DNA of 64,000 bases from Candidatus Micrarchaeia archaeon (GTDB taxonomy: Archaea > Micrarchaeota > Micrarchaeia > Norongarragalinales > CAINOH01). The DNA lies in contig JBAYMJ010000004.1 of the NCBI GenBank assembly GCA_041663565.1, positions 582 through 64,581 of the forward strand. The letters are read 5' to 3'. Shown piece by piece: positions 21,005 to 35,534 of the stretch. Under the pieces are notes generated by a model that did not search any database, was not told the origin of the DNA, and saw nothing but the letters and a program-made list of their open reading frames with translations. The stretch's first letter is position 1, and every line of letters starts with the position of its first letter. Both the position numbers and the translations under genes were made by a program.

Positions 21005-22174
21005 ATGAATCGGGTTTGCAAGTTCAGGTTGTATCCATCCAAAGCGCAGGAAGAGCTATTGCTCCAGCACTTGTGGGCAGCTAAAAACCTTTGGAACAAC
21101 GTCTTGAAAATTACTAAGCAGTTGTATGAGAACTTTGACAAATTCCCAACTGGGCGCACCCTAGCGCAGTTGAGCAAAGATTCGGGCTTGTATTCTCAAG
21201 TCGCGCAACAGGTTTCAATACGCTTGACTCTCGCATTGAAGGCAGTTTCGTGTCGTAAGAAATCGGGCGAGAAGGCGGGGTTTCCGCGTTTCAAAAACAT
21301 TGACCGAATGAAATCACTATGCTACCCCCAGTCAGGGTTCAAACTCGTAGAGAAGAAGCTGCGAGTCACTCCTTTTGGAGAAATCAACATCAGGTTACAC
21401 AGGCCAATCGAGGGCAAAATCAAAACGTTATCACTCAAGCGGAAGTCGAGCGGCAGATGGTTCGCCGTAATCACAGTCGAACTGCCCGACGTGGAATACA
21501 AGTCCAACGGCAAGCCGAGCGTCGGGATAGATGTTGGTTTGAAATCGTTTGCTACTCTGTCGGATGGTTCGAAGATAAAGAATCCGCGCAATTTTGAACT
21601 CGCTCAAGAGCGACTCGCAGCCGCCCAAAAGCAGTTGTCGAAAAAGGCAAGGGACGGGAAGAACCGCTGGAAATCCAAGCGCAGGGTGGCCCGTATCCAC
21701 GAAAAGATTGTGAACAAGCGCGACGACTACCTACACAAACTCTCACACAAGTTCGTAGGCGAGTACGGGCTAATTGCACTAGAAAAACTAGATATAAATA
21801 GGCTGAAAGAGAATAAGTTTGGTAAACAGATTAATGATGCTTCTTGGGGTAAACTCTCGAATATGATTAGCTACAAAGCGGCAGATGCTGGTTGCCAAGT
21901 CGTGCTCGTAGAACCCAAGGGAACAACAAAACAGTGTTCCAACTGCGGCCACGAAAAACGAATGCCACTAACTGAACGCATCTACGGGTGCGACGCCTGC
22001 GGGTTGGTGGAAGACCGTGACGTGAACGCTGCCAAAAACATACTTGCGAAAGCTACGGCGGGAATCGCCGGAAGTAACGCCCGTGGAGTCGGGAGCATAA
22101 TCCCGACAGTGAAACAGGAAGCACTAACCGAAAGGCGGTGTAATTCACAGCGGTTGCAGGCTTCAACAGTTTAA
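21005..22174 (+). CDS. tnpB: TnpB (IS200/IS605 family OrfB; RNA-guided endonuclease), no adjacent tnpA
   Basis: N-terminus MNRVCKFRLYPSKAQEELLLQHLWAAKNLWN (OrfB HTH). C-terminal RuvC plus zinc finger: QVVLVEPKGTTKQCSNCGHEK…CGCDACGLVEDRDVNAAKNI. Confidence 0.85.
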   Translation: MNRVCKFRLYPSKAQEELLLQHLWAAKNLWNNVLKITKQLYENFDKFPTGRTLAQLSKDSGLYSQVAQQVSIRLTLALKAVSCRKKSGEKAGFPRFKNIDRMKSLCYPQSGFKLVEKKLRVTPFGEINIRLHRPIEGKIKTLSLKRKSSGRWFAVITVELPDVEYKSNGKPSVGIDVGLKSFATLSDGSKIKNPRNFELAQERLAAAQKQLSKKARDGKNRWKSKRRVARIHEKIVNKRDDYLHKLSHKFVGEYGLIALEKLDINRLKENKFGKQINDASWGKLSNMISYKAADAGCQVVLVEPKGTTKQCSNCGHEKRMPLTERIYGCDACGLVEDRDVNAAKNILAKATAGIAGSNARGVGSIIPTVKQEALTERRCNSQRLQASTV

Positions 22175-24703: not shown

Positions 24704-25444
24704 TCAGAGCCTGCGCACGTTGCGCTTCAGCCACTCCTCGGCCTCCGCATACTGCCCGAACTTACGCTCGTCCGCAAGGAACGAAGTCGAGTGCACGATT
24801 ACCCGCATGCTCTTGCCGCGCTCGTAGAGCGGCTTGTACTTCGAGTGCAAAAACTCGTGGAAGCACAGGTACTCGATTATGAACCGGGGGACTTCTTCGG
24901 AATCGAATATGCGGCTCACGAGGACCGCGTCGAACGCGCGGTCGTAGAATGCCAGGGTGCGCCGTCCGCCCTTGTCGTTCCAATGGACCGCAGGCATCTT
25001 GTCAAGCTGGAGCACCCAGCGGTATTTTTCCATCACCGACCTACCGACCTCCGAAAGGTCGTACGCGGTTCCCTGCGAGTTGTCGCGCCGCTTCCTAGCG
25101 CGCATCTGCCTCATGGAATCGGAAAGCTTGAACAATGCGCCCTTCTTGGAAAACTCGCGGAAGGCACGCACGTACTCGTTGTCCACTTTCCTGCGAAAGA
25201 GCCGGCCGCACAAGTCAAGCGCAAGGCCCGTGAGCGCCTCGCGGGTGGACAGCCGGAACGCGTCGCTCGCCTCGGCGTCGATGCGCATCTGCAGCCGGTC
25301 CACCGATGCTTTGTGCCTGACGGACGAGAACGGCCTGAAGCGCGCATTGACCGAGTAGCCGGAGATGCCCAGGATTGAGAGTGCGGAATAGAACGCGGCC
25401 TCCAGGTCGGAGTCGTCGAATGAGTCTGCCGGAAGGTCGTCCAT
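24704..25444 (-). CDS. Putative zinc metallopeptidase-like protein (HExxH; DUF45/YgjP-like)
   Basis: …LCFHEFLHSKY… HExxH motif near the C-terminus. Family assignment is uncertain. Confidence 0.35.
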   Translation of the reverse strand: MDDLPADSFDDSDLEAAFYSALSILGISGYSVNARFRPFSSVRHKASVDRLQMRIDAEASDAFRLSTREALTGLALDLCGRLFRRKVDNEYVRAFREFSKKGALFKLSDSMRQMRARKRRDNSQGTAYDLSEVGRSVMEKYRWVLQLDKMPAVHWNDKGGRRTLAFYDRAFDAVLVSRIFDSEEVPRFIIEYLCFHEFLHSKYKPLYERGKSMRVIVHSTSFLADERKFGQYAEAEEWLKRNVRRL

Positions 25445-25562
25445 CGGAATCAGGAAGATACATTGGATGCCGGGAGTTTTTTTGACTATGCAAAAAAATA
25501 CGAAGCATTAAATACGGCGCGCCGGTGATATGATAAATCTCAAAAAAAGGAGGCGTAATGAA

Positions 25563-25595
25563 ATGGCAGCAAAGAAGAAAGCAAAGAAGAAATAA
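25563..25595 (+). CDS. Micro-ORF encoding MAAKKKAKKK (10 aa)
   Basis: Preceded by aaaaaaaggagg (SD-like) and followed by the hairpin ggggggagcattcccccc plus a T-run. A paralog lies 230 nt downstream. Confidence 0.35.
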   Translation: MAAKKKAKKK

Positions 25596-25610
25596 GTGCC
25601 TTGATTTTTA

Positions 25611-25640
25611 GGGGGGAGCATTCCCCCCGCACCATTTTTC
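25611..25640 (+). terminator. GC hairpin (GGGGGGA/TCCCCCC) plus T-tract, intrinsic-terminator-like
   Basis: ggggggagcattcccccc gcacc attttt. Confidence 0.4.
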
Positions 25641-25793
25641 GCCGAGAAAAACAATATTTGCCGGAAAAAATAAAAAAATCCGGCGAAAAATCTGATTTTG
25701 CCGGAAATTATTTTTCCAAAAATTCTGGTATAGTTTTTTATATGATGCCGCAGTGCCAGTATTAACTTTTCAAGAAAAGGAGTGAATCCACAC

Positions 25794-25838
25794 ATGGCAG
25801 CAAAGAAGAAGGCTAAGGCAAAGGCCAAGAAGAAATAA
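25794..25838 (+). CDS. Micro-ORF encoding MAAKKKAKAKAKKK (14 aa), paralog of 25563..25595
   Basis: Same start context (aaaaggag…atggcagcaaagaagaa) and the same …aagaagaaataa ending. Followed by the hairpin gggggacgcatgtgccccc plus a T-run. Confidence 0.35.
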   Translation: MAAKKKAKAKAKKK

Positions 25839-25854
25839 TTTATTTTAAGAGTAT

Positions 25855-25885
25855 GGGGGACGCATGTGCCCCCGACTTTTTCTTT
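25855..25885 (+). terminator. GC hairpin plus T-tract, terminator-like
   Basis: gggggacgcatgtgccccc gac tttttctttt. Confidence 0.4.
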
Positions 25886-26057
25886 TATTTCCCTTCCTTT
25901 CTTTTTACTTTCCGAAAATTCCATCCCGCCGGCGAGCCTGCTGCATATTTATCCTCCGGCGTGGAGAATAATCCTGTGATGAGACTGAGGTATTTCCTAG
26001 CCGCTTGTCCTATGGGATTCTGCTGCGATGAGGAGAAGAGAGTCATCTGATAATTGT

Positions 26058-26672
26058 TCAACCGCTTTCCTCTGCGGACTGGACGGAATACACAAGCACT
26101 TTTGGTCTGAGCGTGCGCCACGAATCGGGCCGCATCCCTGCCTTCGCGCACAGGTGCGAAAGGAACTCCTCCTTTCCCGGAAGCTGTTCCCAGACCTGCG
26201 GGAGGAAAGTCGAGCCAGCTCCGTTCGAGAACTTAAGCAGCACGCCGTTCTCGCGTGGCTTTAGCTTTGAAAGCAAATCGCTTGAATCAGAATAACCAAG
26301 CTCGGACAGCGGCGAAAGCACCGAAACCTCAATAGTGATTTTTTCAAACTCGTCTTTTGAAAGCGGCAGGAAGCGCGGGTCGGAGAACGCGGCGTTGAGC
26401 GCGTTGTCATAAACCGCATACAGCAGAGGCGAGTCGGCAAACATCGAGCCTATGCAGCCGCGAAGGTTCCCGGCGATGGTCAGGGTGAGGAACGCGCCGC
26501 GCTTTTGCATGAGGGCGCCGGCATCTTTTCCCGCGGATTTTTCCAAACCTTTCCGTGAAAGGTTCGGCTGGCCGGAAAGCCGCCGCGCTATCGCTTCCCT
26601 TGCGATGCGCAAAAGAAGACGCATCTGCGGCTTTGAAAACCGTTTCTCACTTGTAGAACGCGAAAGCGCCAT
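26058..26672 (-). CDS. amrA: AMMECR1-domain protein (AmmeMemoRadiSam system protein A); start possibly the internal Met at 26624
   Basis: GAFLTLTIAGNLRGCIG signature of AMMECR1. Operon with MEMO1-like and radical SAM genes. Confidence 0.8.
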   Translation of the reverse strand: MALSRSTSEKRFSKPQMRLLLRIAREAIARRLSGQPNLSRKGLEKSAGKDAGALMQKRGAFLTLTIAGNLRGCIGSMFADSPLLYAVYDNALNAAFSDPRFLPLSKDEFEKITIEVSVLSPLSELGYSDSSDLLSKLKPRENGVLLKFSNGAGSTFLPQVWEQLPGKEEFLSHLCAKAGMRPDSWRTLRPKVLVYSVQSAEESG

Positions 26673-27447
26673 AGCCTACCACCCTTGAATCGTCGCCGCT
26701 TGCCTCTGCCGAAGTCGAGTAACCGAGCCGCACGCACTTCCAGCCCAGCCTGCGGGCAAGAAGCATAACGATGACTATGCCTGTCTTTCCGCACGCGTCG
26801 ATTTCATCCGCACGCGAAACGTCAAGACCTGATATTATTCCGCACGAACGCGAATCAACCGCCTTTGCTTTTGCGAGAGGGAGAAAATGCGAAAGGTCGC
26901 TGCTGACTACCAGGAGGTTCCCTGGTTCCTGCATTGCTACTGAAAGGTAATCAGCGGCGCCCTGCCCGTCGGTCTCGCAGGTTAGCGCGGGATAGATTGT
27001 GAAATCTTTTTTCATCACAGCCTGCAGGAACGGGAGCTGGACTTCGAGGCAGTGCTCGGGGGCGTGGGCCTCGCACGCATCAATGACCAGGTCGGACTTG
27101 CCGCAAATCTTATCGATTGCGCCAGCAGCGACTCCGCCGATTGGCGTCCGCCATGCTGTTGCGCCGCAGGTCGCAAGGCCGGAAAAGAGCGCGTTGTGCG
27201 ATGGGCCGACAAGGATTACGTTTTTTGGCTGTGATGCGAGTTGTGACAAAAGGGCGTATGCCTTGCCGGCGGTTGCGCCGGAATAGACATAACCTGCGTG
27301 GGGAACTATCAGGGCGCGAAGGGTGCCGGGAACTTCCGCCGCGGCCGCTTTGTTCAGGAAGCCATACACCGCGGATTCCAGTTGCGTTTTTCCCGCAGGG
27401 TAGAAACTGCCTGCGTATGCCGGTTTGCGCTCGGTCTTTTTCTCCAT
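26647..27447 (-). CDS. amrB: MEMO1-family protein (AmmeMemoRadiSam system protein B)
   Basis: N-terminus RKPAYAGSFYP plus HAGYVYSG motifs typical of Memo/LigB-like proteins. Confidence 0.8.
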   Translation of the reverse strand: MEKKTERKPAYAGSFYPAGKTQLESAVYGFLNKAAAAEVPGTLRALIVPHAGYVYSGATAGKAYALLSQLASQPKNVILVGPSHNALFSGLATCGATAWRTPIGGVAAGAIDKICGKSDLVIDACEAHAPEHCLEVQLPFLQAVMKKDFTIYPALTCETDGQGAADYLSVAMQEPGNLLVVSSDLSHFLPLAKAKAVDSRSCGIISGLDVSRADEIDACGKTGIVIVMLLARRLGWKCVRLGYSTSAEASGDDSRVVGYGAFAFYK

Positions 27448-28590
27448 TCACTTCACGCTGATTTTTCGGGCTGGTTTGAGCTGGTTCTTGTCCCATATGC
27501 CCGGAATCTTCTTTTTGCACTGGCTGCACTTGCCGTCCTTTCCGAGGGACTTGACCCCTACTGAATAGCCGTGCCGCGAAACCAAAAGGGCCTTGCAATC
27601 CGGGCAGTAGGTGTTCTCATACTCTTGGTCTTTTGAAGGGAGGTTGCCTGCATAGACGAATGAAAGGCCCTCGTCCAAGCCGATTTTCCTCGCAGCCACA
27701 AGCGACTGCATAGGCGTTGCCATCACGTCCAACATCCTGTACGCGGGATGGAAAGCGGTCACGTGCCAGGGAATATCTTTGTCAACAGATGCGATGAAGC
27801 TGGCGATTTGCGAAAGCTCGTCTTTGGAGTCGTTCTTTCCGGGGATTACGAGGGTGGTTATCTCGACCCAGATGCCGAGCTTGCGGCAGCGCCTGACCGT
27901 CTCAAGCACCGGCTCAAGCGAGGCGTGGCAAATCGAGGAATAGAACTTTTCTGAGAAGGACTTGATGTCTATGTTGATTGCATCAAGCACGGGCGCTATG
28001 AACCCAATCGACTCCTTGGAGGTGTAGCCGTTGGATACGTAGACCGTCCCAAGGCCCGCTGCTTTTTTTGCGGCAACGGAACAGTCGTAGGCGTACTCGG
28101 AGAAAATCGCAGGCTCGTTGTAGGTGAACGCGACGCTTGCGCAGCCGCCCGCGATTGCCGCACCGGCAAAGTCGGAAGGCGAGACATAAGGAAGATTATC
28201 AAATTCCTTTTCAAGCAGCGCAAGTCTCTCCTTTGCAGTTGACTTTGCGCCTCCAATCAGCCTCGGCGCCTGGGAAAGCTCGGGGTTCTGGCAGAACTCG
28301 CAGGCGAAGTTGCAGCCGTAAGTCCCCATCGAAAGGATTTCAGTCGAGGGCAGGAAGTGGAAGAGCGGCTTCTTCTCAACCGGGTCTATTGCGATTGAAG
28401 ATGGCCTGCCGTATGCGAGGAGATGCAGCTGACCGCGTTCGTTCTTCCGGATGCCGCAAAAGCCCGTCGAGCCGTTCGGGATGGTGCAATAGCGCGAGCA
28501 GGCGAGGCACTTGACTGGTTTGCCCGCGCCTACGCTTGAGAAGAGCTTTGCAACAGCACTGTCTCCGCTTCCTTTGCTTTTGCCGGTCAT
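27448..28590 (-). CDS. amrS: AmmeMemoRadiSam system radical SAM enzyme (PFL-activase-like); start taken at the Met of MTGKSKG
   Basis: Radical SAM cluster motif GCNFACEFCQN. Contiguous with the MEMO gene, and has a 4-nt overlap with the upstream PhoU-like gene. Confidence 0.75.
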   Translation of the reverse strand: MTGKSKGSGDSAVAKLFSSVGAGKPVKCLACSRYCTIPNGSTGFCGIRKNERGQLHLLAYGRPSSIAIDPVEKKPLFHFLPSTEILSMGTYGCNFACEFCQNPELSQAPRLIGGAKSTAKERLALLEKEFDNLPYVSPSDFAGAAIAGGCASVAFTYNEPAIFSEYAYDCSVAAKKAAGLGTVYVSNGYTSKESIGFIAPVLDAINIDIKSFSEKFYSSICHASLEPVLETVRRCRKLGIWVEITTLVIPGKNDSKDELSQIASFIASVDKDIPWHVTAFHPAYRMLDVMATPMQSLVAARKIGLDEGLSFVYAGNLPSKDQEYENTYCPDCKALLVSRHGYSVGVKSLGKDGKCSQCKKKIPGIWDKNQLKPARKISVK

Positions 28591-29627
28591 TTCTCCTCGC
28601 CCTGCCTGTGCGCCCCTGCCGGCCGCCTGTTGCGGTTGAGCGTAATCTCCGCAATCTCCGCGCAATAGTTCGCGATGCTGTTGTCGAGCTTTGCAAGCAT
28701 GAGCGTGTACTGGACAGGCACCTTGCGCTGGTGCTGCGACACCTCGTTTAGTGCCGCTCGGTACTCCTCGCTTGAGCGGCGCCTGTAATCGAGCACGGAC
28801 TCGGCAGCCGCGGTGTCGGACTCGGTGAACGCGCGCACCGCCAAGCCGTACTGCCTTGCCGCTTCGGTGCAGGCCGCCTCGAACTTCCTTGCCGGAAAGT
28901 CCTGGGACCTGGCATTGCCCACCTCGTGGTAGTGCATGCCGATTTCGATTATGTCGTCAGCTATGTGCTCGAGATTGCGGGTCGCGACCGCGTAGTCTAT
29001 GCAGTCCGCGCTCGCAAGGCCCATCGCAAGCAGGACGCGCGTGTCGGAAAGCGCCAGGTTGAGCTGGCGAAGGATGAGGAATTTCAGCCGGTCGACCTCG
29101 TCGTCGCGCGAGCGCATCGAACGGGCGGACTCGTAATCTGCGCGCTTGACTGTGGAACAAAGCTCGGAGAACAGCTTCCCTACAAGGAGATGCATCCTGC
29201 CGAAGGCGCGTTCAACCGACAGCTCCTTTTGCGAGTAGAAGTCCCGCACGGTAAGCGATGATTCGGTCTCGTCGGTCACTTCCATTCCGATGAGCCTGCG
29301 TGCCTCCTCGAATATCGACTGGCGCGTGCTGTTGGAAAGGGCGTTCCGGGAGTAGAAGAGGATGCGGCCGGTGCCTGCAATGTAGGACGCGATGAACTTC
29401 CTGCGAAGTGAGTCCGTCTTGTACTGGTCCACGCAGACTTTTTCCTCAGCGGCCCGCGCAGCCTGCGCCTCCGCGTCCTCCGCATCAAGGACAAGCGAGC
29501 CTCCGGCGGATTCTAGCACTGAAAGCCTGGTTCCCCGACCTATCCCCTTGCGCTTGGCCCACTCCTTGGGCAGGGAGACGGTGTAAGTTGAAGTCCCGGT
29601 GAGCTGGACGCGGCGTACTGACGGCAT
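28587..29627 (-). CDS. AbrB/SpoVT-domain plus PhoU-domain regulator (archaeal PhoU homolog)
   Basis: N-terminus VQLTGTSTYTVSLPKEWAKRKGIGRGTRLSVLESAGGSLVL (AbrB-like), followed by a PhoU-like helical region (…DDEVDRL…, …LEHIADDI…). Confidence 0.65.
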   Translation of the reverse strand: MPSVRRVQLTGTSTYTVSLPKEWAKRKGIGRGTRLSVLESAGGSLVLDAEDAEAQAARAAEEKVCVDQYKTDSLRRKFIASYIAGTGRILFYSRNALSNSTRQSIFEEARRLIGMEVTDETESSLTVRDFYSQKELSVERAFGRMHLLVGKLFSELCSTVKRADYESARSMRSRDDEVDRLKFLILRQLNLALSDTRVLLAMGLASADCIDYAVATRNLEHIADDIIEIGMHYHEVGNARSQDFPARKFEAACTEAARQYGLAVRAFTESDTAAAESVLDYRRRSSEEYRAALNEVSQHQRKVPVQYTLMLAKLDNSIANYCAEIAEITLNRNRRPAGAHRQGEEK

Positions 29628-29781: not shown

Positions 29782-29895
29782 TTACAGCTCGCTGTTGCGG
29801 CGCGCTATCTTCCGCTTGAGGCGGCGGCGCTTCTTCTTAATCCATTTCCAGCGCATGTGGTTCTTTTTCTTCCATTTGCGGGGTCTTGAACCCAT
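29782..29895 (-). CDS. rpl41e: Ribosomal protein L41e (37 aa); not in ORF track
   Basis: Hand translation of the minus strand: MGSRPRKWKKKNHMRWKWIKKKRRRLKRKIARRNSEL*, a typical archaeal L41e. Confidence 0.7.
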   Translation of the reverse strand: MGSRPRKWKKKNHMRWKWIKKKRRRLKRKIARRNSEL

Positions 29896-35394: not shown

Positions 35395-35534
35395 CGGGCC
35401 CGACGGGATTCGAACCCGCGACATCTTGATTGCTTCTCGACCCGCTTGCGAAACTAAAACGATTGCAAAAAAACAAATCTCGCAAGAAGGAGGATTAAAA
35501 GTCAAGCGCTCTAGCCAGACTGAGCTACGGGCCC
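35395..35534 (-). tRNA. tRNA-Lys (anticodon UUU) with ~66-nt intron at the canonical 37/38 position
   Basis: Reverse complement reads GGGCCCGTAGCTCAGTCTGGCTAGAGCG CTTGA CTTTTA [intron ATCCTCC…GAGAAGCA] A TCAAG ATGTC GCGGGTTCGAATCCCGT CGGGCCC G, with acceptor, D, anticodon and T arms all pairing. Confidence 0.8.

Follow-up and report, generated by a model that had tools for sequence, protein, structure and literature searches.

Lysine-rich micro-genes of 7 to 15 codons in Micrarchaeota, and the case for reading their products as encoded polycations

Can a reading frame of only ten codons be a gene in its own right, and what might a peptide composed almost entirely of lysine and alanine do for the cell? 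These questions are raised by a short AT-rich spacer in a 64,000-nt stretch of DNA from a Candidatus Micrarchaeia archaeon (positions 582 to 64,581 of contig JBAYMJ010000004.1), referred to here as the window, in which two very small open reading frames (ORFs) lie in tandem beside the genes of the AmmeMemoRadiSam system. Across approximately 25400-26000 the GC content falls to 0.38-0.44, against 0.578 for the entire window. Within this island, on the plus strand, micro-gene 1 (ORF1) runs from an ATG at 25563 to a TAA at 25595 and encodes MAAKKKAKKK (10 aa), and micro-gene 2 (ORF2) runs from an ATG at 25794 to a TAA at 25838 and encodes MAAKKKAKAKAKKK (14 aa). Lysine accounts for 6 of the 10 codons of ORF1 and 8 of the 14 codons of ORF2. 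A window-wide scan for short basic ORFs returned these two as the only Lys/Ala ORFs. They have in common the 17-mer ATGGCAGCAAAGAAGAA, which occurs exactly twice in the window and not once in 100 shuffles, and both close with AAGAAGAAATAA. On the comparisons described below we are fairly confident that both are real, translated genes; what their products would do is a more tentative matter, for which we favor an action through positive charge on nucleic acid or ribosomes.

Expression signals and conservation of the two micro-genes

Each ORF is framed by a set of expression signals of its own. Upstream of ORF1, the putative promoter (25492-25514, plus strand) consists of an A-rich stretch, whose position alone makes it comparable to a TFIIB recognition element, and, after it, the TATA-like box ATTAAATA at 25507-25514, ~56 nt 5' of the start codon. 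In alignments of relatives this block reads GCTTATATA or GCTTTTATA, with TATA forms TTATATA or TTTTATA. A GGAGG Shine-Dalgarno (SD) motif at 25549-25553 lies 9 nt before the ATG, and the longer string GGAGGCG is unchanged in all five ORF1-type units. The 3' end of the unit (25605-25639) comprises a T5 run (25605-25609), a hairpin (25611-25628) and a second T5 run (25635-25639); the hairpin, a 7-bp GGGGGGA/TCCCCCC stem closed by a GCAT loop, starts 15 nt past the stop codon, and its region folds at -17.3 kcal/mol with a z score of -2.3. This hairpin is conserved, and in one relative (L252) a G-to-A change is compensated by C-to-T on the opposite strand of the stem, which becomes GGGGAGGA/TCCTCCC. 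The second unit follows the same plan, with a TATA box TTTTATAT at 25736-25743 (~58 nt 5' of the ATG), where the block TTTTATATG is identical in five of five ORF2-type units and takes the form TTTTTATTC in L247, and with the SD motif GGAGTGA at 25779-25785, 8 nt before the ATG, embedded in CAAGAAAAGGAGTGAA. The window, L003, L004, L250 and L252 all have this 16-nt block in identical form. Past the stop codon, the 3' end of unit 2 (25847-25881) is formed by a hairpin with a G5 core at 25855-25873 and an extended stem at 25847-25879, which starts 8 nt past the stop, and by a subsequent T5 run (25877-25881); the folding energy of the hairpin is -15.9 kcal/mol (z -3.7), and a hairpin of differing sequence is present at the same place in every relative.

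A simple terminator scan omitted both hairpins, whose T-runs begin more than 2 nt after the stem, and a bacterial promoter scan of the region returned no sigma-70 promoter. The conserved TATA-like boxes and oligo-T runs fit the archaeal signals known from general experience better than they fit a bacterial promoter combined with a rho-independent terminator, and from their position, sequence and conservation we infer that the upstream blocks are archaeal promoters. Among 46 long ORFs of the window, with starts crudely called at the first ATG, only six carry an SD match of at least 5 nt, so that the SD motifs of the micro-genes do not appear to be a genome-wide default. Immediately 3' of unit 2 lies the pyrimidine-rich tract CTTTTATTTCCCTTCCTTTCTTTTT (25882-25906, plus strand), which is conserved in relatives and 72% complementary to the Lys-codon run of ORF1; it could be an additional oligo-T termination signal or an effect of composition.

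To follow the locus into other genomes we reached relatives via the neighbouring proteins, which gave seven Micrarchaeota genomes, the window included, in which the neighbouring protein is 60-100% identical. These hold 13 micro-gene units of 7-15 aa. Next to the 10- and 14-aa pair of the window stand pairs of 12 and 14 aa (L252/L253), 8 and 11 aa (L003), 13 and 14 aa (L254), 15 and 15 aa (L004), and 7 and 7 aa (L250/L251, where both products read MAKKKKK), and L247 carries a single copy of 12 aa with no second unit. All 13 units begin with ATG GCN and end with AAG AAG AAA TAA, and their lengths change in multiples of 3 nt; among orthologues of ORF1, nucleotide differences are either synonymous or indels in multiples of 3. 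In the otherwise diverging spacer the conserved islands are precisely the TATA boxes, SD motifs, ORFs and hairpins, with compensatory changes that keep the pairing. The sequence-only reading that first drew attention to the locus had proposed an AT-rich island with two paralogous, independently signaled micro-genes sharing a start context and an ending, and had named the lack of in-frame conservation in relatives as the observation that would speak against them. That reading is upheld on each of these counts, with small corrections of coordinates: the drop in GC and both ORFs are present, the 17-mer and the common ending agree with paralogy, each unit has an SD motif and a stable fold with T5 runs in addition to a TATA box, and these signals and the reading frame are kept in the relatives. 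None of the called gene sets for the related loci includes the micro-genes.

Codon usage sets the units apart from their surroundings. Across the 13 units, non-terminal Lys codons are AAG in 78 cases and AAA in 1, compared with 117 AAG and 62 AAA in neighbouring genes, and the last Lys codon is AAA in every unit. The stop codon is likewise TAA in 13 of 13 units, compared with TGA in seven of eight neighbouring genes. The peptides of the relatives combine Lys with Ala, Thr, Gly or Ser, while those of the window, beyond the start Met, hold Lys and Ala alone. Copies from the same genome resemble each other more than they resemble their orthologues, as seen in the 7-aa pair, in the 15-aa pair sharing an ATKKK ending, and in a genome with the AKAK type in both copies, a pattern that indicates concerted evolution of the paired sequences.

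Two other ways of reading the frame were considered and rejected. A longer version of ORF1 starting from the ATG at 25530 (MINLKKRRRNEMAAKKKAKKK) has no SD motif, and in L004 its ATG is either missing or in another frame. For a programmed -1 shift into the frame open at 25601-25765, no slippery site of the X XXY YYZ type is present, and neither L003 nor L004 conserves the -1 product; the spacer underlying this frame shows little conservation and has indels whose lengths are not multiples of 3. The palindrome described earlier between the two micro-ORFs (25651-25705) was recovered in part, in that the terminator scan lists 25679-25705, but the segment is not conserved in relatives and for this reason is probably not functional.

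Similar micro-ORFs in metagenome contigs

Metagenome contigs were scanned with the pattern ATGGCNGCNAARAAR-N(0-30)-AARAARAARTAA, corresponding to MAAKK...KKK*, and at least 120 loci matched. We called a micro-ORF free-standing when an in-frame stop occurs within 40 codons upstream. The counts given in this section refer to the matches listed, which comprise 114 unique contexts, 105 of them in frame and 83 of these free-standing. An SD match of at least 5 nt at -18 to -3 is found in 47 of 82 (57%), compared with 2-7 of ~80 at control offsets, and the flanks, with the ORFs masked, form approximately 44 clusters. In bacterial contigs the micro-ORFs occur near sigma-54 response regulators, TlpA-like oxidoreductases and SecA, and in archaeal contigs near Nre, Tyw1, a YGR210-type GTPase and a 136-nt tRNA match, with TATA-like boxes 50-60 nt upstream of the ATG. 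The whole ORF spans 7-19 codons with in-frame stops close upstream, and tandem pairs recur in L010/L019/L082, L032, L049 and L060. Judged from reading frame, SD enrichment and flank diversity, the listed matches are real translation units.

The interior codons, which the search pattern leaves free, are informative about what is being conserved. Among 498 such codons from 80 distinct ORFs, 285 encode Lys (AAA or AAG) and 122 encode Ala, the latter spread over the four GCN codons (40, 36, 24 and 22), whereas Asn occurs once, Arg five times (two of them AGR), and Glu, Gln and Asp not at all. Since the one-step neighbours of Lys codons are nearly absent while GCN is used freely, selection would act on amino acids and not on a purine-rich RNA motif, and we take these codon counts to show that it is the composition of the peptide that is selected. 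Over the free-standing set as a whole the residues number K 716, A 295, G 27, S 22, T 14, P 7 and R 5, with no D, E or Q. The AAG fraction tracks contig GC (r = 0.68, contig GC 0.29-0.72), and the Lys/Ala composition with almost no Arg persists in contigs of 65-72% GC.

Viral contigs gave a different picture. The same pattern returned at least 120 matches there, but these are the C-termini of longer K/M-rich phage ORFs, and among those counted as free-standing by the 40-codon rule an SD motif precedes only 1 of 30; we rejected them as members of the micro-gene class on account of their longer ORFs without SD motifs. A mirror-image control pattern gave only 2 matches. The phage contigs concerned, from IMG/VR (L125-L244; for example L145, L171 and L186), carry small proteins of ~30-100 aa, rich in Lys, Met and Ala and ending in ...KKMAAKKMKKK*, which apparently constitute a separate, large family of very basic proteins.

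Two groups of bacterial loci within the scan merit separate description. One is a cluster of soil bacterial contigs (L005, L008, L013, L021, L051, L052, L058, L077, L085, L086, L089, L093 and L105) with the micro-ORF MAAKKKAKKKAKKKKK, in which a conserved, structured 3' region extends to ~200 nt downstream and holds a G/U-rich stretch, an anti-SD-like element AAACCCTCCTT, the hairpin GGTAACCGTTCTGGTTACC and a strong terminator. The anti-SD-like element could pair with the SD motif of the micro-ORF, and the locus as a whole, ~250 nt long and not in Rfam, could be a dual-function small RNA (sRNA) and mRNA. The other consists of two related low-GC bacterial contigs, in which the micro-ORF (L027, 9959-10009, minus strand; L031, 7225-7266, minus strand) lies 1-89 nt upstream of secA on the same strand by crude ORF calls; the placement, seen in these two contigs only, recalls that of secM in E. 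coli.

Possible function and rival explanations

The reading that we favor, while holding it somewhat less probable than all its rivals taken together, is that the peptides are polycations acting through their charge on nucleic acid or ribosomes. Each unit would be transcribed separately from its TATA-like box into a short RNA with a 5' untranslated region of ~25-30 nt and a strong SD motif, a 10- or 14-codon ORF, and a terminal hairpin with oligo-T. The products would be unstructured oligolysine peptides with a net charge, by their Lys count, of approximately +5 to +10, and abundant peptides of this kind would bind and neutralize nucleic acid, either rRNA and ribosomes or DNA. The transcript ends as placed here, the accumulation of the peptides and their binding target are points that we infer. 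High expression would be expected because the units combine near-consensus TATA boxes with strong SD motifs, AAG bias, TAA stops and co-evolving duplicate copies. Peptide length is free to vary between 7 and 15 aa while the composition stays at Lys plus small residues, and therefore a charge-based role is favored over docking at a defined site.

Comparison with known systems supports parts of this reading and marks its limits. In composition the peptides match the Lys/Ala(/Pro) segments of nucleoid proteins that resemble the C-terminal tail of histone H1, namely the tail of mycobacterial HupB/MDP1, Streptomyces HupS, Pseudomonas AlgP, chlamydial Hc1/Hc2 and the Deinococcus HU extension. Such segments resemble the micro-peptides in consisting of Lys and Ala with minor amounts of Pro, Gly, Ser or Thr, in being nearly free of Arg and in lacking acidic residues, even at high GC. 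They differ in extent, being 50-200 residues long and usually fused to a folded domain, whereas a micro-peptide amounts to one or two 'repeats' in total; the micro-ORFs, at 7-19 codons with close in-frame upstream stops, contain neither a long repeat array nor a fusion to an HU or histone fold. A functional analogy is offered by polyamines, which are likewise small, flexible polycations (spermine carries +4, compared with +5 to +10 for the micro-peptides) in which total charge would matter more than exact sequence, and this fits the plasticity of peptide length; polyamines are metabolites, whereas the micro-peptides are gene-encoded.

Tiny basic ribosomal proteins (eL41/eS32 of 25 aa, bacterial bTHX, bL36, mycobacterial bS22 and bL37) resemble the micro-peptides in being very short, basic and stand-alone with strong translation signals, and they are thought to pack against rRNA. 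They mix Arg with Lys, have a conserved sequence and fixed length and are seen in ribosome structures, whereas the micro-peptides consist of 7-19 residues of Lys plus small residues only and vary in length between orthologues. The constancy of eL41 in particular is unmatched by micro-gene orthologues of 7, 8, 10, 12, 13 and 15 aa. As a separate observation, the window does contain an eL41-like candidate ORF, MRWKWIKKKRRRLKRKIARRNSEL, ~4 kb away at 29782-29856 (minus strand) or extending from an upstream ATG at 29895 with GGAG before it. It lies just upstream of a PhoU/AbrB gene that precedes the amr operon, and the only Pfam family listed for it is Ribosomal_L41 (PF05162), at 10.5 bits compared with a cut-off of 22.3.

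Library searches returned nothing that would name the micro-genes. No Rfam family was found at the micro-ORFs, either in an E-value scan of the region or in gathering scans of the whole window and 19 related loci. Pfam and NCBIfam gave no meaningful match for the padded micro-peptides, and no Ribosomal_L41 or other ribosomal model at E <= 10, in a search weakened by low-complexity bias filters. In the literature searched, which omits most subscription journals, no 'MAAKKK' or Lys-rich small-ORF or microprotein genes of this type came to light. Micro-protein genes and tiny basic peptides are known as a kind; we found no family or paper that covers an oligolysine gene of 7-19 codons which is free-standing, occurs in both domains and is often in tandem. 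That these form a single class of stand-alone genes in Bacteria and Archaea, encoding oligolysine counter-ions for RNA or DNA in the manner of polyamines or H1 tails, is a speculative extension that we put forward as a doubtful but serious possibility; on this view they would rank with the shortest known genes that encode a conserved protein.

Several observations weigh against the polycation reading. For a peptide meant to bind, the 7-aa product of L250/L251, MAKKKKK, is very short. The invariance of AAG AAG AAA TAA and the near absence of Arg could mean that a Lys codon or tRNA-Lys is what is needed, so that the act of translation and not the peptide would be under selection. The metagenome class is defined by a pattern, and its members may be convergent rather than homologous. 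The 3' structure of the soil cluster raises the prospect that the RNA there may do more than encode a peptide. Finally, the lack of a library match is weak evidence, since the peptides had to be padded in order to be searched.

The second of these points leads to the main rival of the polycation reading, in which translating the mini-ORF is itself the function, whether to sense or draw off ribosomes, charged tRNA-Lys or peptidyl-tRNA, or to stabilize or terminate a short transcript; minigenes, 'start-stop' elements and arrest elements provide models. We regard this as a real though unlikely alternative. Constraint at the nucleotide level is what it would predict, and the 78:1 preference for AAG together with the AAA-TAA ending of all 13 units answers to that description; so does the avoidance of Arg, which would preserve charge. 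The shrinkage of the ORF to 7 codons, roughly a ribosome footprint, with SD, stop and hairpin retained, points the same way, as do the many class members whose SD motif has long complementarity to the 16S 3' end and the soil cluster with its anti-SD-like CCCTCCTT and further conserved downstream hairpins. AAG bias and a TAA stop are, however, equally expected of a highly expressed coding gene, and Ala codons vary freely. No consistent regulated partner emerges, in that the flanking families vary by lineage and, in 29 of 73 listed metagenome loci, the gene crudely called downstream is encoded on the opposite strand; in the window both units are closed by a hairpin and T-run of their own, and what follows is a convergent gene. 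We know of no case that establishes bacterial-type coupled transcription-translation attenuation in archaea. If the ORF were instead incidental, the loci would be non-coding sRNAs whose purine-rich (AAG)n tract and terminal hairpin bind an Sm/Hfq-type protein or a pyrimidine-rich target, a proposal in keeping with the A-R-N motif that Hfq binds through its distal face, with the pyrimidine tract at 25882-25906 and its 72% complementarity to the Lys run, and with the structured 3' region of the soil cluster. We consider it improbable. The third position of AAR is a purine in 285 of 286 codons (the one exception being Asn) while GCN takes all four bases, which is a coding signature and not an A-R-N one, and SD motifs show enrichment at the correct spacing, all 13 units keep their start, stop and frame, and no Rfam match was obtained.

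Each of the remaining alternatives is highly improbable. Adjacency to amrA in the window, L003, L004, L250, L252 and L254 suggested that the peptides are substrates or partners of AmrS/AmrB/AmrA, in the way that a precursor of a peptide that is ribosomally synthesized and then modified post-translationally (RiPP) lies beside its radical S-adenosylmethionine (radical-SAM) maturase; the substrate of AmmeMemoRadiSam is, to our knowledge, not known, and in the literature searched the system receives incidental mentions only. PqqA and MftA are likewise very short ORFs next to a radical-SAM gene. The micro-genes, by contrast, are convergent with the operon, with TATA boxes and terminators of their own, do not co-occur with it beyond close relatives, and encode no leader/core division and none of the usual target residues Cys, Tyr or Glu. 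L247 keeps its micro-gene in divergent orientation to the 246-aa homologue (60% identity), with AglB/STT3 at the position that amr takes in the window; a tblastn search with AmrA, AmrB and AmrS against 120 listed metagenome loci matched only the window's own contig and two close relatives; K-rich micro-ORFs are absent within 3 kb at three bacterial amrA loci; and the amr system is far more widespread, with 7377 AmrA homologues at E <= 1e-20 among 8000 candidates scored. This lack of co-occurrence largely refutes the amr partnership, which we rate as the least probable of the readings considered. Of the search for micro-ORFs beside amr in relatives that had been proposed at the outset, the micro-ORFs proved conserved, and the adjacency to amr proved restricted to close relatives, so that the suggested tie between the two is not supported. 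Only slightly more credible is the earlier suggestion that the ORFs are leader peptides of a lysine-responsive attenuator controlling a downstream gene. Attenuator leaders (hisL, thrL, pheL and the lysine-cluster leader peptide known in Thermus) do have the same layout, in which an SD motif precedes an ORF whose 10-20 codons come mostly from one codon family, with a hairpin and T-run directly downstream. They precede the gene that they regulate, whereas the micro-genes stand in tandem in an archaeal host, each self-terminated, with no same-strand gene downstream in the window, where amrA is convergent. Across the metagenome loci, in addition to the opposite-strand neighbours counted above from crude calls, the same-strand downstream genes are unrelated to lysine (TlpA-like, hydrolases, SecA, RecG-wedge, RpiA, Tyw1 and RimK-like), and minimum-free-energy folds contain only the terminal hairpin, no alternative antiterminator pairing that overlaps the ORF being evident in them. 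The leader-peptide idea thus found no backing. Comparably remote is a role as secreted or released cationic antimicrobial or host-interaction peptides. The strong cationic charge would suit it, and Micrarchaeota live attached to host archaea, but the peptides have no signal peptide and no hydrophobic or amphipathic face, transporter or immunity genes are not consistently adjacent, and the class also occurs in contigs of free-living-type soil bacteria.

If the peptides proposed in the polycation reading are made, conserved prokaryotic genes with an expression of their own would reach down to a size of ~7 codons, and a gene-encoded polycation would join polyamines, basic ribosomal proteins and nucleoid proteins among the charge neutralizers of nucleic acid. 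The retention of two strongly signaled copies in genome-reduced DPANN archaea suggests a real cellular need. The size and low complexity of the class make it invisible to normal annotation, yet it occurs in dozens of unrelated contigs, which amounts to a systematic blind spot. The same results remove a tempting candidate substrate for AmmeMemoRadiSam.

Neighbouring genes and a third small unit

The three amr genes lie on the minus strand, convergent with ORF2: amrA (26058-26672), amrB (26647-27447) and amrS (27448-28665). Their products pass the NCBIfam cut-offs of the set TIGR04335/TIGR04336/TIGR04337, and the convergent arrangement noted earlier is confirmed. In another instance of the system, a bacterial locus (L256, 3001-6681, GCA_900175155.1) has, after amrA and in the same orientation, a gene whose 700-aa product contains a spermine-synthase domain, and only then the radical-SAM gene, an unusual insertion.

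On the other side of the island, divergent from ORF1, the gene for the 246-aa protein (24704-25444, minus strand) encodes an HExxH motif (HEFLH), and no Pfam, NCBIfam or PDB relative of the product was found. Among GTDB species genomes its only relatives are two Candidatus Micrarchaeota/Micrarchaeia metagenome-assembled genomes, with 83% and 74% identity and the same gene order, and it was also found on a metagenome contig. Beyond this stable synteny we draw no functional tie between the 246-aa gene and the micro-genes. The most distant homologue, L249 (40% identity), adjoins an intergenic region without a micro-ORF. At approximately 3080-3350 of L249, read on the minus strand, a GC-rich stretch of ~250 nt has a structured appearance and may represent an RNA gene, for instance that of the signal recognition particle RNA.

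A third small unit lies between ORF2 and amrA and is a neighbour of the micro-genes, not part of them. This candidate C/D-box-like sRNA (25975-26051, plus strand, ~77 nt) is preceded by its own TATTTATCC box at ~25950-25958, about 25 nt upstream. Its 5' end GTGATGA, an internal GCGATGA and its 3' end CTGA are invariant in five genomes (the window, L003, L004, L250 and L254), and the ends as a whole are nearly so, reading GTGATGAG...GAGGTATTTCCTAGC and GCGATGAGGAGAAGAGAGTCATCTGAT. The internal hairpin is variable; one genome shows covariation in it, and L250 carries a longer insertion. The putative guide regions are AUGACUCUCUUC and GCUAGGAAAUACCUC. The Rfam family sR11 scores 17.1 bits compared with a gathering score of 39, a D' box is not clear, and the spacing from C' to D is 15 nt.

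Elsewhere in the window, a 140-nt match to the tRNA family (Rfam RF00005, 57.2 bits) at 35395-35534 on the minus strand, missed by ARAGORN under bacterial settings, is read as a tRNA with a long intron and speaks for an archaeal origin. A gene for an IS605-family OrfB/TnpB transposase with a Cas12f-like TNB domain lies at 21005-22174 on the plus strand, ~3 kb from the island.

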